Below, one piece after another: positions 3,410-15,794 of a stretch of DNA of 64,000 nt. The DNA comes from Bacteroidota bacterium (lineage in GTDB: Bacteria; Bacteroidota; Bacteroidia; Flavobacteriales; TMED113), in assembly GCA_036158635.1 (NCBI GenBank), contig JAYYFR010000006.1, positions 14,281-78,280 of the forward strand, given 5' to 3'. The translations under genes were made by a program, and so were the position numbers. Numbering within the stretch: the stretch's first letter is position 1; each line of letters starts with the position of its first letter. Under the pieces are notes generated by a model. The model saw only the letters and a program-made list of their open reading frames with translations. It searched no databases and was not told where the DNA came from.

Positions 3410-4159
3410 ATGTTAAAAAAAATACTTGATAAAAGTAAGTTAATTTCTTTAGAAGAAGAAAGCCATACATATACACTTTTAAATTCAACAATAGAATTTA
3501 AAAGTGTCACCGAATTTATTCATACATTTTTCAAGCCTTTTGATGAAAAAAAAATTGCAAAAAAACTTACTCAAACAAATCTAAAGTATAAAGGAATGAG
3601 TGTTGAAGAATTAATTGGAAGTTGGAACAAGAGAAGAGATAGAGGAACCATTGTACATAAACAAATAGAAGATTATATTAATTCAAATTTTATAATAAGC
3701 GAGTTAGAATTTAACAACTTAGACCCAAAAACTCAACAGGGAATAAACTTTATAAAGAAAAAATGTTTAAAAAATACTAATAAACTATTTTCTGAAGTAA
3801 TGATTTACTCAGAAGAACTAAAACTTGCAGGTACTATTGATTTAATTGTATATAATGAAGAAAAAAATCACATTTCACTTATTGATTGGAAGACAAATAA
3901 AAGAATTAACAAAAGCTCATTTAATAACCAAAAGGGAACTAAATTCCCTCTTAATAATATGGATGATTGTAATTTCACTCACTACAATCTACAATTATCG
4001 ATGTATCAATATATTTTAGAGAAGTATTATAATGTAAATGTTAATGGTTTATTTCTTGTGCATTTAAATGAACAAGACTATAACTACAAAAATTATATGT
4101 GTGACTACAAAAAAAATATGATTATACAAATGATAAACGAACTTCTAAACATAAAATAA
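3410..4159 (+). CDS. PD-(D/E)XK (RecB/Cas4-like) exonuclease, phage-like
   Basis: SVT, RGTIVHKQIE, SE...LAGTIDL...IDWKT, and RecB-family QLSMY (QxxxY) motif; ATG at 3410. Confidence 0.85.
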   Translation: MLKKILDKSKLISLEEESHTYTLLNSTIEFKSVTEFIHTFFKPFDEKKIAKKLTQTNLKYKGMSVEELIGSWNKRRDRGTIVHKQIEDYINSNFIISELEFNNLDPKTQQGINFIKKKCLKNTNKLFSEVMIYSEELKLAGTIDLIVYNEEKNHISLIDWKTNKRINKSSFNNQKGTKFPLNNMDDCNFTHYNLQLSMYQYILEKYYNVNVNGLFLVHLNEQDYNYKNYMCDYKKNMIIQMINELLNIK

Positions 4160-4168
4160 TTTCTAATA

Positions 4169-6925
4169 ATGAAAAAAAATCTAAAATTCATTGAGAGACT
4201 AACTAGCGAAATAGAATTACTAGAAAATTTAATTAATAATGAAGAATTAGAAGACCATGGACGTATCGGTGCTGAACAGGAGTTCTGTTTATTGGATGAT
4301 AATTTTAGAGCTAGTCCCGTAAATAAAAAAATACTAAAAGGTATTAATAATGATGGATTTGTAACAGAAATTGCAAAGTTCAACATGGAACTCAATTTAG
4401 AACCATTAGAAATTAACAAAACTTGTTTAAGGAGACTAGAAAAAAACATTCTTAACAAAATGAGTATAGTAAATAAATTTGCCTCGAAATTTGATACCAA
4501 ATTAATTTTAACTGGAATTTTACCAACTGTTAGAAAATATGATTTAAGATTTGATAATATCACAAATAACCAAAGATATTTTGAACTATGTGAATCAATT
4601 AATAAAATCAGGGGAGAAAATTATAAGTTAAGAATTAGAGGGATTGATGAATTAGTTTTTGAACATGATTCTCCTCTAGTTGAAGGATGTAATACTGGAT
4701 ATCAATTTCATCTACAAATTGGGCCTAAAGATTTTGCAAGAATGTATAATATTTCTCAATTAATTTCAGGACCTGTCTTAGCAATAAGTACAAATTCGCC
4801 TATGTTATTTGGAAAGAGATTATGGCATGAAACTAGAATAGCTGTCTTTCAGCAATCTACTGATACGAGAGTTATTGGGAGTTATCATCCTGGAACACTT
4901 CCAAGGGTAACATTTGGTAATCAATGGATTGATAAATCAATTATAGAAATCTTTAAAGAAGATATTATAAGGTATAAAATTTTATTAAAATCATTAAAGA
5001 AAATCTCCAAATTAGATCCAAAAAAACCTAAACTTGAGGCACTATCTCAACACAACTCAACAGTTTATAGATGGAACAGACCATGTTATGGAATATATAA
5101 TAACAAGCCCAGTCTAAGAATAGAATCTAGAATGTTTCCTGCAGGACCTACAATAGTTGATGAGGTAGCAAATTCAGCTTTTTGGCTTGGTTTAATGATG
5201 TTTTATAAAGAAAGTAGTATTTCTAATATTTCTGAAATCATGGAGTTTGATGATGCTAGAACTAATTTTTATTCAGCTGCACAACAGGGCATAGATTGCA
5301 CATTTAAATGGTTTGATGGTAAAAGAATTGATGCAAGAAAATTAATTTTAAATGATTTAGTTCCTAAAGCAGCTATTGGATTATCAAACATTAATATAGA
5401 CCCTAAAGACATTGATAAATACTTAAATATAATTAAAGACCGAGCACATTCAAGAAAAACTGGATCTAGATGGATTATAGATTCTTTTGACCTTCTATCT
5501 AAAAAAGTATCAACACAAAACGCTTTAACTACAATAACATCAGAAATAATTAAAAATCAAAAAAAAAACATACCTGTTCATAAGTGGGAATTAACAAAAA
5601 ATAGTGTTTTAATTAATAACCCATCTGAACTCCTTGTTGAAGAATGTATGGACAGGTATATTTATTCAGTTGATGAAAGTGAGTCTTTTTCTCTTGCAAT
5701 AAAAATTAATGAGTGGAAAAAACATGACTATATTGTTGTTGTTAACATAAATGGTAAAATTACAGGAGAACTCACAAAAGATATTTTGGAAAACAAAAAA
5801 AACATTCAAAATAAAAATAACATTCTTGTAAAAGACGTAATGAAAAAAAATCCTATATGTATTGAACCCAACGAAAATATTTCCAACGCAATTAAATTAA
5901 TGAAACTAAAAAAAAGTGAAATGATTCCTGTTCATGAAAAAAAATTATTTATTGGGATGTTACAAAAGAAATATTTGTTACAGTATGAATTTGAATCTCC
6001 AAAACTGTTAAAAAAACAAGAAATATTAGCATTTGAAGATAGGATATTAGGAAACTACCACTCAGGTGAAAAAGGTAAAACAATAGTATTTATGTGTGGA
6101 ATTCATGGCAATGAATTATCAGGAAAAAAGGCACTTAAAAAAATCTTTTCATATTTAGAAAATAATAAAATTGAAATCAGGGGGAATATTATAGGAATTC
6201 AAGGAAACTTAAAAGCTATTGAGAAAAAAGAAAGATATATTGACGTAGACTTAAATAGAATTTGGACAAAAAAAACAATAAATGAAGTTAAAAAGGGAAA
6301 AATAAAAGACGTGTATGAGTATAAAGAATTAATTAAAATTCATGATATAATAGATGTTATTCTTAAAAAGAAAAAAAAGAAAGATATTATTATAATTGAC
6401 CTGCACAACACTTCCTCTGCAAGTGGTTTATTTACAGTTATTAATAATACTAAAGATTTCAAATTAGCATCTGCCATTCAAATACCTGTTATTACAAAAT
6501 TATTTAATAAAGTAAAGGGCTCTTTTTCTCAATACTATAATTCAAAAAATATTTCAACTATTGTTTTTGAGGGTGGTGCTATAGGTGATCCAGCTTCAAC
6601 TAATAATCATGAAATAGGAATTTTTAAAATTTTAGAAAGCTGCGGGGTAATTAAGAAAGAAGATACTCCTAATTTTATTACAAATCGTTCTAAGTCAAAA
6701 ACTAAAAAGAGCTTATATAAAGTAAAGTATATTCATTTAATATCAGAAAGTGATAACTTTTTAATGAAACCAAATGTTATCAATTTTCAAAATATAAAAA
6801 AAGGAGAAGTATTAGGTAGTGATAAGAATGGGGATGTTAAATCACCATTTGATGGAAAAATACTTATGCCTTTATACCAAGAACAAGGTAGAGAAGGGTT
6901 CTATATAATTCAAAATGAAAATTAA
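4169..6925 (+). CDS. Fusion: GCS2 carboxylate-amine ligase + CBS pair + AstE/AspA-family zinc amidohydrolase
   Basis: aa ~30-475 GAEQEF, TEIAKFNMELN, QFHLQ, WNRPCY, LRIESRMFPAGPT; aa ~488-604 two CBS repeats; aa ~624-918 GIHGNE, DLNR, DLH, FEGG, MPLYQ. Confidence 0.85.
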   Translation: MKKNLKFIERLTSEIELLENLINNEELEDHGRIGAEQEFCLLDDNFRASPVNKKILKGINNDGFVTEIAKFNMELNLEPLEINKTCLRRLEKNILNKMSIVNKFASKFDTKLILTGILPTVRKYDLRFDNITNNQRYFELCESINKIRGENYKLRIRGIDELVFEHDSPLVEGCNTGYQFHLQIGPKDFARMYNISQLISGPVLAISTNSPMLFGKRLWHETRIAVFQQSTDTRVIGSYHPGTLPRVTFGNQWIDKSIIEIFKEDIIRYKILLKSLKKISKLDPKKPKLEALSQHNSTVYRWNRPCYGIYNNKPSLRIESRMFPAGPTIVDEVANSAFWLGLMMFYKESSISNISEIMEFDDARTNFYSAAQQGIDCTFKWFDGKRIDARKLILNDLVPKAAIGLSNINIDPKDIDKYLNIIKDRAHSRKTGSRWIIDSFDLLSKKVSTQNALTTITSEIIKNQKKNIPVHKWELTKNSVLINNPSELLVEECMDRYIYSVDESESFSLAIKINEWKKHDYIVVVNINGKITGELTKDILENKKNIQNKNNILVKDVMKKNPICIEPNENISNAIKLMKLKKSEMIPVHEKKLFIGMLQKKYLLQYEFESPKLLKKQEILAFEDRILGNYHSGEKGKTIVFMCGIHGNELSGKKALKKIFSYLENNKIEIRGNIIGIQGNLKAIEKKERYIDVDLNRIWTKKTINEVKKGKIKDVYEYKELIKIHDIIDVILKKKKKKDIIIIDLHNTSSASGLFTVINNTKDFKLASAIQIPVITKLFNKVKGSFSQYYNSKNISTIVFEGGAIGDPASTNNHEIGIFKILESCGVIKKEDTPNFITNRSKSKTKKSLYKVKYIHLISESDNFLMKPNVINFQNIKKGEVLGSDKNGDVKSPFDGKILMPLYQEQGREGFYIIQNEN

Positions 6926-6927
6926 AG

Positions 6928-7923
6928 TTAATTTTCATTTTGAAACATAATCTTTGCTAAATCAACTAGTCTATTTGAATAACCGTATTCATTATCATAC
7001 CAACCAACTATTTTAATCATATTATCTAAACAAAAAGTCAATTTAGAGTCAAAAATACAAGAAAACGGAGAAGATATAACATCGACTGAAACAATAGGAT
7101 CTTCGGTATAAGAAAGAATACCAGAAAAAGTATCATTAGATTCTTTTTTAAATAAGTTATTTATTTCAGAAACAGAGGTTTTATTTCTAACAATACAAGT
7201 TATGTCAGTTAAAGAGCCATTTGAAACAGGAACACGAATTCCACACCCACCTATATTCATTTTAGGAAATATGTTACTTAAAGCTTTTGCCGCTCCTGTG
7301 GTAGTTGGGATAATTGAGTTTGGGGCTGACCTGGCTCTTCTCAAATCATGATGGTTTGAGTCGTGTAAATTTTGATCAGTGGTATATGAATGAACAGTTG
7401 TAACATACGCTTTCTCTATATCAAAAGAATCATTTAGAATTTTTATCATTGGTGCAGCACAATTTGTTGTACATGAAGCATTTGAAATAATTAGATCCGA
7501 TTTAGTAATAATACCTCCATTAACACCTAAAACAACGGTCTTAATAGACTTATCCTTTGGGGGAGCTGATAGAATAACTTTTTTTGCACCTGACTTAATA
7601 TGTTTTTTTAAATATTGACCAGTTAAATACTTACCAGTTGCCTCAATAACTAAATCAACATTATATTCTTTCCATGGTATTAATTCAATTTTAGAGTGGT
7701 TTATAACGGGAATTTTTTTTTCTCCAATTATTAAATTTTTTTCATCATACGACAATTTTTCAGGAAATCGACCGTGAATTGAATCATATTTCAATAAATG
7801 ACTTAAAACTTTTAAATCACTTAAGTCATTAATAACTACTATTTTAAAATTATTATCATTAAAGATAGACCGAAAAAAAGACCTACCTATCCTACCAAAT
7901 CCATTTATAGCAACTCTTATCAT
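6928..7923 (-). CDS. gap: Type I glyceraldehyde-3-phosphate dehydrogenase
   Basis: INGFGRIGR, SNASCTTNC active site, WYDNEYGYS. Confidence 0.96.
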   Translation of the reverse strand: MIRVAINGFGRIGRSFFRSIFNDNNFKIVVINDLSDLKVLSHLLKYDSIHGRFPEKLSYDEKNLIIGEKKIPVINHSKIELIPWKEYNVDLVIEATGKYLTGQYLKKHIKSGAKKVILSAPPKDKSIKTVVLGVNGGIITKSDLIISNASCTTNCAAPMIKILNDSFDIEKAYVTTVHSYTTDQNLHDSNHHDLRRARSAPNSIIPTTTGAAKALSNIFPKMNIGGCGIRVPVSNGSLTDITCIVRNKTSVSEINNLFKKESNDTFSGILSYTEDPIVSVDVISSPFSCIFDSKLTFCLDNMIKIVGWYDNEYGYSNRLVDLAKIMFQNEN

Positions 7924-15024: not shown

Positions 15025-15056
15025 ATAAAATAATGTAATTAATATTTATTTAACTA

Positions 15057-15794
15057 CTATTTTTCTTCAGCCTCTTCTTTATTTTCTTCGTCTGTTGAAC
15101 CTTCTTTTTCAGTAAGCTCTTCTTCTGCAGGTTCTTCTTTAGCAGGTGCCTCTTCAACAGGTGTCTCCTCAGCAGGTGCCTCTTCAACAGGTGTCTCCTC
15201 AGCAGGTGCCTCTTCAGCAGGTGCCTCTTCAACAGGTGTCTCTTCAGCAGGTGCCTCTTCAGCAGGTGTCTCTTCAGCAGGCGCCTCTTCAGCAGGTGCC
15301 TCATTGTTTGATGAATTTGAAATAGATTTAGATTCTTTAACTTTTGAATCTAAATTTTCACTATTATTTGAAGATTTAGATGATCTTCTAGATCTTCTTG
15401 TTTTCTTTTTATCTTCTTTGTCAGGGTTATAAATTTCATTAAAATCAACTAATTCAATAAAACATATCTCAGCTGCATCACCTAGTCTTTTTCCTAATTT
15501 TATAATTCTTGTATACCCCCCTGGTCTATTTGAAACTTTTTCTGAAATAACAGAGAAAAGTTCAGAAACAGACTTTTTATCTTTTAATTTAGAAAAAACA
15601 ACTCTTCTAGAATGTGTGGAATCATTTTTTGATTTAGTGATAATAGGCTCAACATATCTTTTTAAAACTTTTGCCTTAGCAACAGTAGTTTTTATACGCT
15701 TATGTATAATTAAAGAGCAAGCCATATTTGAAAGCATAGCCTTACGGTGACTTGCTGTTCTACTTAGTGATTTATTTTTATTTCTGTGCCTCAT
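15057..15794 (-). CDS. rplQ: 50S ribosomal protein L17 with long acidic repeat tail
   Basis: MRH...[31 protein letters not shown]; then a Ser/Lys linker and E-A/T-P-A/V-E repeats. Confidence 0.97.
15123..15302 (-). repeat. In-frame 15-bp tandem repeat (11 units plus 1 degenerate) in rplQ
   Basis: Minus-strand unit GAGRCACCTGYTGAR encoding [15 protein letters not shown]. Confidence 0.95.

Follow-up and report, generated by a model that had tools for sequence, protein, structure and literature searches.

The 64,000-nucleotide stretch of Flavobacteriales DNA analyzed here (contig JAYYFR010000006.1; hereafter the window) encodes a 918-amino-acid (aa) protein that joins a carboxylate-amine ligase, a CBS pair and an AstE/AspA-type zinc amidohydrolase in one chain (Table 1). 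Relatives of the two catalytic halves occur as neighboring genes in several phyla and have fused more than once; together they constitute a real, uncharacterized and widespread two-enzyme module. For its chemistry we tentatively favor a reading to which we give slightly less than even weight, namely that of a bifunctional make/break enzyme whose product, a gamma-glutamyl-amino acid, does not serve as a precursor of glutathione.

Table 1. Layout of the fused gene and its domains in the window.
Feature	Position	Strand	Extent
Fused open reading frame (ORF): GCS-fold ligase + CBS pair + AstE/AspA-type zinc amidohydrolase	4169..6925	+	918 aa
Carboxylate-amine ligase domain, of a family without a name	4169..5593	+	aa 1–475
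CBS pair	5624..5986	+	aa 486–606
Variable linker, the fusion junction	5987..6040	+	aa 607–624
M14-like AstE/AspA zinc amidohydrolase	6041..6922	+	aa 625–918

The claim of the first-pass annotation that one uninterrupted frame carries all three domains is borne out by translation (zero internal stops), profile searches and structure prediction, and the gene is present in a single copy in the window's genome (a 60%-complete, 1.0-Mb assembly). Pfam places AstE_AspA_cat at residues 636–804 (74 bits) and CBS at 554–605 (34 bits), with a weak GCS2 match on the ligase part (21.7 bits, cut-off 21), and the catalytic residues named earlier (E36, E38, H646, E649, D694-L-N-R697, H746, E801) all stand where they were claimed. 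The full-length AlphaFold model (pLDDT 77, pTM 0.63) resembles YbdK and glutamate-cysteine ligases (GCLs) in its N-terminal part and AstE, aspartoacylase, EutE and CphZ in its C-terminal part; at this pTM, domain packing is not defined by the model. The linker at the CBS–hydrolase junction is poorly conserved (mean identity 27% among fusions) and has low pLDDT. Even so, Logan contigs from four runs of four seawater studies bridge the junction gap-free (X3, 3900–7179; X2, 4799–6650; X5, 5305–7200; X7, 5908–6068), one of them covering the entire ORF, where the evidence consists of contigs rather than raw reads and the best holder was excluded as a possible source. The fusion is therefore not an assembly chimera, nor does a stop interrupt the junction. 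Contigs of RNA runs (four runs, three studies) covered ligase and hydrolase pieces, with none across the junction, and a promoter scan gave a chance-level result (36 vs 35.9). The linker between ligase and CBS pair (window:5600-5626, aa 478–486) is strongly conserved in the fused clade, is not the same as in split forms, and could be an interdomain contact, although model confidence is low there.

The strongest evidence that the two halves belong together comes from genomes in which they are separate genes. In a survey of 401 Bacteroidota genomes, the ligase was found in 127 (the window's genome not counted), and in 94 of these the hydrolase is adjacent, on the same strand and in the same order, ligase first. 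The longer, CBS-type ligase accounts for 94 of the 127; an orthologous hydrolase occurs in 70 of those 94, in 63 as the next gene downstream in the same orientation, and 63 of the 73 strong hydrolase matches directly follow a ligase-CBS gene. Of the other 24 CBS-type genomes, 7 hold distant, unlinked M14 matches only. The remaining 33 ligase genomes form one family, identified as green sulfur bacteria by the presence of FmoA in 5/5 tested. Their ligase is without CBS, and a divergent hydrolase type (sought in 57 genomes) was found in 31 of the 33, adjacent in all 31. Across phyla, the hydrolase adjoins the ligase at 31 of 80 loci, some of the others ending at contig ends, and the phyla with an adjacent pair include Planctomycetota, Gemmatimonadota, Myxococcota and Ignavibacteriota. 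The earlier suggestion that flavobacteria "usually" encode a split pair was overstated as to frequency, since the ligase occurs in 4 of 28 genomes of the most-sampled family of the same order, but it held as to arrangement, the hydrolase being adjacent in all four. Tandem, diverged ligase-CBS copies, mostly ahead of a single hydrolase, were also seen (G172, G200, G332, G368, G380; L056, L057).

The Rosetta-stone logic of the first-pass annotation, by which the fusion ties split neighbors to one pathway, thus stands on conserved adjacency, and it gains from the recurrence of fusion itself. Among the best 120 homologues of the window protein, 45 further 90%-identity clusters carry CBS and AstE (58–98% identity; 41 longer than 900 aa), and those bearing names are Flavobacteriales proteins from metagenome-assembled genomes. 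Within the window's family, 14 of 15 genomes match the fusion and 12 of 15 hold it as one stop-free frame (two of these end at contig ends). Purifying selection acts on all three domains, dN/dS being 0.05–0.26 in ligase, CBS and hydrolase over six pairs, with saturation of one ligase value. A profile search for other fusions returned one 965-aa ligase-CBS-hydrolase singleton and 825-aa forms without CBS, the latter making up 116 of the best 120 matches, some named Gammaproteobacteria or Planctomycetales. In a tree of a 30-row subset (two long-branch rows excluded), the approximately unbiased (AU) test rejected a single clade of all fusions (p-AU 7e-58) as well as a clade of the window's fusions with the 965-aa protein (p-AU 3e-5), and fusion arose at least three separate times. 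Recurrent fusion, conserved adjacency, invariant catalytic sites and purifying selection together argue that the functional link of the halves holds. That they share no pathway, the fusion being a side effect of how densely genes are packed in a small genome, is a very remote prospect: the family's assemblies do measure 0.8–1.6 Mb with tightly packed genes, and each half is found alone in some genomes, but packing accounts poorly for adjacency in many phyla, for its occurrence with both hydrolase subtypes and for three or more separate fusions.

The ligase half belongs to the GS-fold carboxylate-amine ligase superfamily. As given in the accessible part of its description (PMC2588565), that superfamily has GhExE on strand 1, acidic residues on strands 2–3, [HQD]x[NH] on strand 4, arginines on strand 5 and E-x-[RK]-x2-D on strand 6. 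In the window protein, G34-A-E36-Q-E38, E67, E74, Q179-x-H181 and R223/R304/R317 correspond to strands 1–5, and the family's invariant positions comprise G34-x-E36-x-E38, E67, E74, R136, E172, Q179-x-H181, R223, R246, W302, R304 and R317-x-E319-x-R321. Apart from the last Asp of the strand-6 motif, the superfamily motifs are kept in 44–46 of 46 fusions (two are N-terminally cut), 73/73 split ligases and 116/116 CBS-less fusions. When the ligase is modeled alone (pLDDT 93), its Z-scores are 40 against YbdK, 34 against plant GCL and 29 against yeast GCL. Compared with YbdK (GCS2, PF04107; 1r8g, 1tt4), it shares the fold (root-mean-square deviation 2.2 over 344 aligned residues) and the ExE, QxH and R-x-E-x-R motifs, whereas identity is 11%, the domain is ~110 aa longer, CBS and hydrolase partners are present, and the sequence lies below every NCBIfam cut-off. 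YbdK, EgtA and plant-type GshA identities were rejected on these scores (17 bits for the window ligase vs a cut-off of 409); among 59 family members the best E for these equivalogs is 6e-9, all far below the cut-offs. The two new families in the accessible part of PMC2588565 have other partners and do not match the window's ligase family.

This family is large (1241 clusters at 50% identity, E up to 1e-30). Its actinobacterial members carry the annotation glutamate-cysteine ligase family, and at the two of their loci viewed no hydrolase adjoins the gene. Other architectures include a ligase-CBS-HIT fusion, extra CBS repeats and a pyridoxamine-phosphate-oxidase-like domain (P0139, P0125, P0250, ligase-CBS-HIT being a cluster of three); the HIT fusion is a hint that the CBS pair may be linked to dinucleoside polyphosphates. 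A 583-aa member, P0226, on a long branch of the tree and possibly algal, has a Ser/Ala-rich N-terminal extension resembling a eukaryotic organelle transit peptide, and a distant haloarchaeal member (L137:5503-7056; 517 aa, 24% identity, annotated hypothetical) lies on a Natrinema plasmid.

Resemblance to eukaryotic GCLs bears on an alternative that we consider unlikely but not negligible: a gamma-Glu-Cys or other thiol-dipeptide synthetase with a dedicated hydrolase, serving a cysteine store or stand-alone thiol rather than a glutathione route. Yeast Gsh1 (3ig5; PF03074) ranks first in Foldseek (TM 0.74) and aligns with 462 of the 475 model residues, the plant GCL score is high, an ESM Atlas cluster of eukaryotic GCLs scores 0.92, and PF03074 matches 14 of 64 ligase family members (best E 6e-5). 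Identity to yeast Gsh1 and plant GCL (2gwc) is, however, only 15–17%, the host genomes are mostly without GshB, and family members fall far below the EgtA, plant-type GshA and YbdK models. A sequence-profile search of the PDB did not reach 3ig5 at E up to 10.

The thiol genes of the host genomes weigh further against this alternative, and they make a plain glutathione pathway unlikely. GSH-S_N (PF02951) was found in 20 of the 401 genomes and in 7 of the 127 with the ligase, those examined being PRK12458-like. In the window's family, whose assemblies are 52–98% complete, no convincing GshB was found, the matches to GSH-S_ATP (PF02955) being weak and partial (19–39 bits), while BshC is present in 15 of 16 genomes, the window's included. 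For Chlorobiaceae, the accessible part of one study reports that no glutathione was detected and that Cba. tepidum has cysteine and N-methyl-bacillithiol, gamma-Glu-Cys not being directly addressed there (PMC6282198). BshC, the lack of a convincing GshB and the presence of the pair in glutathione-less green sulfur bacteria together leave the glutathione reading weak, and on the PF02951, PF02955 and BshC results the ligase is unlikely to be the GCL of such a pathway. GGT was not found in the window's genome at its 60% completeness; it is present in 6 of 15 relatives.

The hydrolase half carries the full set of M14-like zinc-site residues, in agreement with the first-pass annotation. The predicted zinc ligands (H646, E649, H746), the predicted general base (E801) and R689, N696 and R697 are invariant in 67/67 aligned hydrolases and 46/46 fused proteins, and Y903 is a further residue of note. 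The HxxE-plus-His triad, the catalytic Glu and the R/NR residues align with aspartoacylase and AstE, and together with the two-domain fold and the Pfam score (74 bits vs 25) they place the domain among M14-like AstE/AspA enzymes. With AstE, aspartoacylase and EutE/DoeB (PF24827) it shares the fold (Z 20–25) and the HGNE, DLNR, DLH and catalytic Glu motifs. It differs from them in score (69 bits vs 180 for PRK02259, 60 vs 170 for PRK05324), in its pairing with a ligase and in having no ast genes among annotated neighbors, and AstE or aspartoacylase proper was rejected (47–69 bits vs equivalog cut-offs of 170–306). The NR pair of the AstE/AspA fold holds the leaving amino acid by its free alpha-carboxylate. 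By this family chemistry, the window hydrolase would need a free alpha-carboxylate on its leaving group; the N696/R697 pair would fit an acyl-amino acid such as gamma-Glu-Xaa, a carboxylate-less gamma-glutamyl amine less well.

A precedent is CphZ/AotO, which has the same fold (Z 19.9) and, according to the accessible part of PMC9974463, is an isopeptidase recycling the product of an amide-ligase pathway; its essential N112 and R113 bind the Arg half of beta-Asp-Arg. From motif order, these two residues are probably equivalent to N696/R697. CphZ is, by contrast, specific for beta-Asp-Arg/Lys, and no cyanophycin genes occur among the recurrent neighbors annotated here. CphZ identity was rejected at 14–16% structural identity vs a criterion of >30% together with the Asp/Arg pocket residues D181, D222, E223 and K366; T748, not Asp, stands two residues after the third zinc His, the sole CphZ pocket position mapped. 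Many split hydrolases (L081, L104, L119, L123 and others) have a conserved ~90-aa C-terminal extension that the fused form is without.

The top fold matches AstE, AspA and EutE/DoeB are deacylases, which lends some support to a two-step biosynthesis in which a protecting group, acyl or glutamyl, is stripped by the hydrolase either ahead of ligation or following it. EgtA/EgtC is the model for such a ligation-plus-deprotection pathway, and a linear route would avoid a futile cycle and suit a fusion. We nevertheless regard it as rather improbable: an orthologous hydrolase is missing in 26 of the 127 ligase genomes, and no third gene recurs across phyla (100 loci; ORFs under 90 aa not clustered), the commonest neighbor cluster after ligase and hydrolase being found at 11 loci, mostly Saprospiraceae.

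Reversible glutamylation of a protein or peptide, with the ligase as writer and the hydrolase as eraser, is harder still to sustain. PafA and Dop share the ligase fold (Z 21–22), but YbdK and the GCLs outscore PafA by far. The hydrolase also stands beside an ATP-grasp ligase and a MATCAP-family gene, eukaryotic members of that family being tubulin deglutamylases (PMC10499314); its closest structures, however, act on small molecules, and no conserved small ORF was seen, ORFs under 90 aa not having been clustered. A protein tag, one of the products that the first-pass annotation offered, is conceivable but lacks positive support.

The operons behind that second association merit description in their own right. 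In three genomes with hydrolase and no ligase, the hydrolase follows a MATCAP/QEGLA peptidase and a PRK12458 ATP-grasp ligase (L142:8017-12175, L143:5879-9786, L144:7229-11135), so that it follows amide ligases of two folds. Four other loci of the same operon type (L150–L153) contain an extra 263–278-aa gene, matched by Pfam FGase in 4/4. MATCAP/QEGLA, the glutathione-synthetase-like PRK12458 ATP-grasp and either the hydrolase or an FGase-family amidohydrolase make up a second, uncharacterized ligase-peptidase system in Bacteroidota.

Between the two enzymes, the CBS pair proved intact in fold and degenerate in motif. Pfam detects only the second of the two repeats claimed earlier; both are recovered by the NCBIfam CBS-pair profile (486–609) and in the AlphaFold model (484–610, Z ~16 to CBS-pair structures; 16.2–16.6 over 482–612), as expected of a Bateman fold. 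The ribose-phosphate motif reported in the accessible part of PMC11172384, G-h-h-S/T-x-x-D/N, is replaced in CBS2 by G596-M-L-Q-K-K-Y602 (5954–5974). The Thr/Ser position is Q/E/D/H in 46/46 fused proteins vs T/S in 72/73 split ones, and the D/N position, N or D in 62/73 split ligases, is variable in fusions. In CBS1, D/N is absent in fused and split forms alike, and R520, P523 and R538 of split forms are lost in the fused clade. With S/T in 0/46, this clade has probably lost canonical adenylate binding. Neither the green sulfur bacterial pair nor the 116 other fusions have a CBS, and the pair looks like an optional module that may sense a nucleotide in split forms. Switching by energy charge, as the first-pass annotation proposed, is thus unnecessary to the system and unsupported for the window protein; that CBS is under purifying selection implies some function, perhaps a structural role or one involving a different ligand.

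These observations bring us back to the make/break enzyme. The ligase half would spend ATP on linking a free amino acid, probably other than cysteine, through its amino group to the gamma-carboxylate of glutamate, by a gamma-glutamyl-phosphate mechanism suggested by family chemistry, and the zinc hydrolase half would cut the same amide and release the amino acid. The product would be an end metabolite that stores nitrogen or amino acids or acts as a compatible solute, as suggested by the presence of the ligase without hydrolase in some genomes and the lack of a third gene recurring across phyla. Of the original proposal, linkage, fusion and motifs have stood, reversal on the same substrate rests on genomic linkage, and the energy switch has fallen away. 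Its analogy with RelA/SpoT and GlnE is loose. Glutathionylspermidine (Gsp) synthetase/amidase, a bifunctional synthetase/amidase, is the closer parallel: it resembles PuuA/PuuD and EgtA/EgtC in combining an ATP-dependent amide ligase and an amidase, fused or in one operon, whereas these systems differ from ours in that their amidase folds are cysteine or Ntn hydrolases and their substrates known, Gsp also in its ligase fold.

Several points weigh against this reading. The make/break chemistry of both halves is predicted from sequence and fold, and the nearest ligase folds are cysteine users (YbdK weakly, plant GCL, yeast GCL). At the Asp of YbdK's E-x-R-x-x-D motif the window ligase has P324 (P/A/S in relatives), an equivalence from a weak hhalign match (prob 34%), although E319-x-R321 is invariant. 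The CphZ precedent concerns beta-aspartyl, not gamma-glutamyl, cleavage, the enzyme being almost inactive on gamma-Glu-Arg (PMC9974463, accessible part). A chain that combines opposing activities with a degenerate sensor would be prone to futile ATP cycling. Two families (f32, f25) dominate the pairing counts, in which kin are not independent. Finally, one same-family relative (L165, G406) has a TGA inside the hydrolase at position 826, and the 98%-complete G410 keeps a two-piece remnant (residues 5–91 and 845–915; G410:C24:9390-9885).

Among genes near the fusion, a 241-aa class-I glutamine amidotransferase overlaps its stop in 6 of the 13 relatives whose sequence continues downstream (L158:4247-4972 (+), L159, L161, L163, L165, L167; split in two in L167). 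Its best PDB match is the plant gamma-glutamyl peptidase GGP1, and it was not found in the window's 60%-complete genome. Of 24 genomes with ligase-CBS and no hydrolase, 17 have a homologue, as against 2 of 101 with both. We did not count this as support: in the hydrolase-less genomes the gene is unlinked to the ligase and stands beside a Maf gene at 6 of 10 loci, its closest homologues are in ligase-negative genomes, and the hydrolase-less genomes may be one lineage. The window's other neighbors, encoding a PD-(D/E)XK nuclease, DUF4294, GAPDH, LipA and 3-hydroxyacyl-CoA dehydrogenase, are syntenic only inside the family. The PD-(D/E)XK nuclease-like gene (window:3389-4159 (+)) lies just upstream on the same strand at all family loci with upstream DNA, and this is probably synteny only. 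Farther away, an ORF that we take to be ribosomal protein L17-like (window:15057-15794 (-)) has a long acidic, proline-rich repeat tail, and its repeat also begins an 84-aa opposite-strand ORF (15050–15304).

No study of the ligase-hydrolase pair was found in the literature searched. The work of Iyer et al. (2009) on amidoligases, outside that search, reportedly surveys ligase-peptidase neighborhoods and could mention it. As the ligase is auto-annotated as GCL in bacillithiol-using organisms, that label is probably wrong across many genomes. Because a single protein contains both halves, the substrate can be tested for directly. Most members of a small-genome marine family retain the gene, and cultured flavobacteria have split homologues of it; its product may accordingly be a common, overlooked reserve of glutamate and nitrogen. 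The structural match to yeast GCL, which covers the whole ligase, is a lead on how glutathione synthesis arose in eukaryotes. In a broader reading, which we hold to be a minority prospect, the pair would make and recycle an unreported gamma-glutamyl metabolite in marine Bacteroidota, green sulfur bacteria and several other phyla, and its ligase, as the closest bacterial relative of the non-plant eukaryotic GCL, would reflect a pre-glutathione state.

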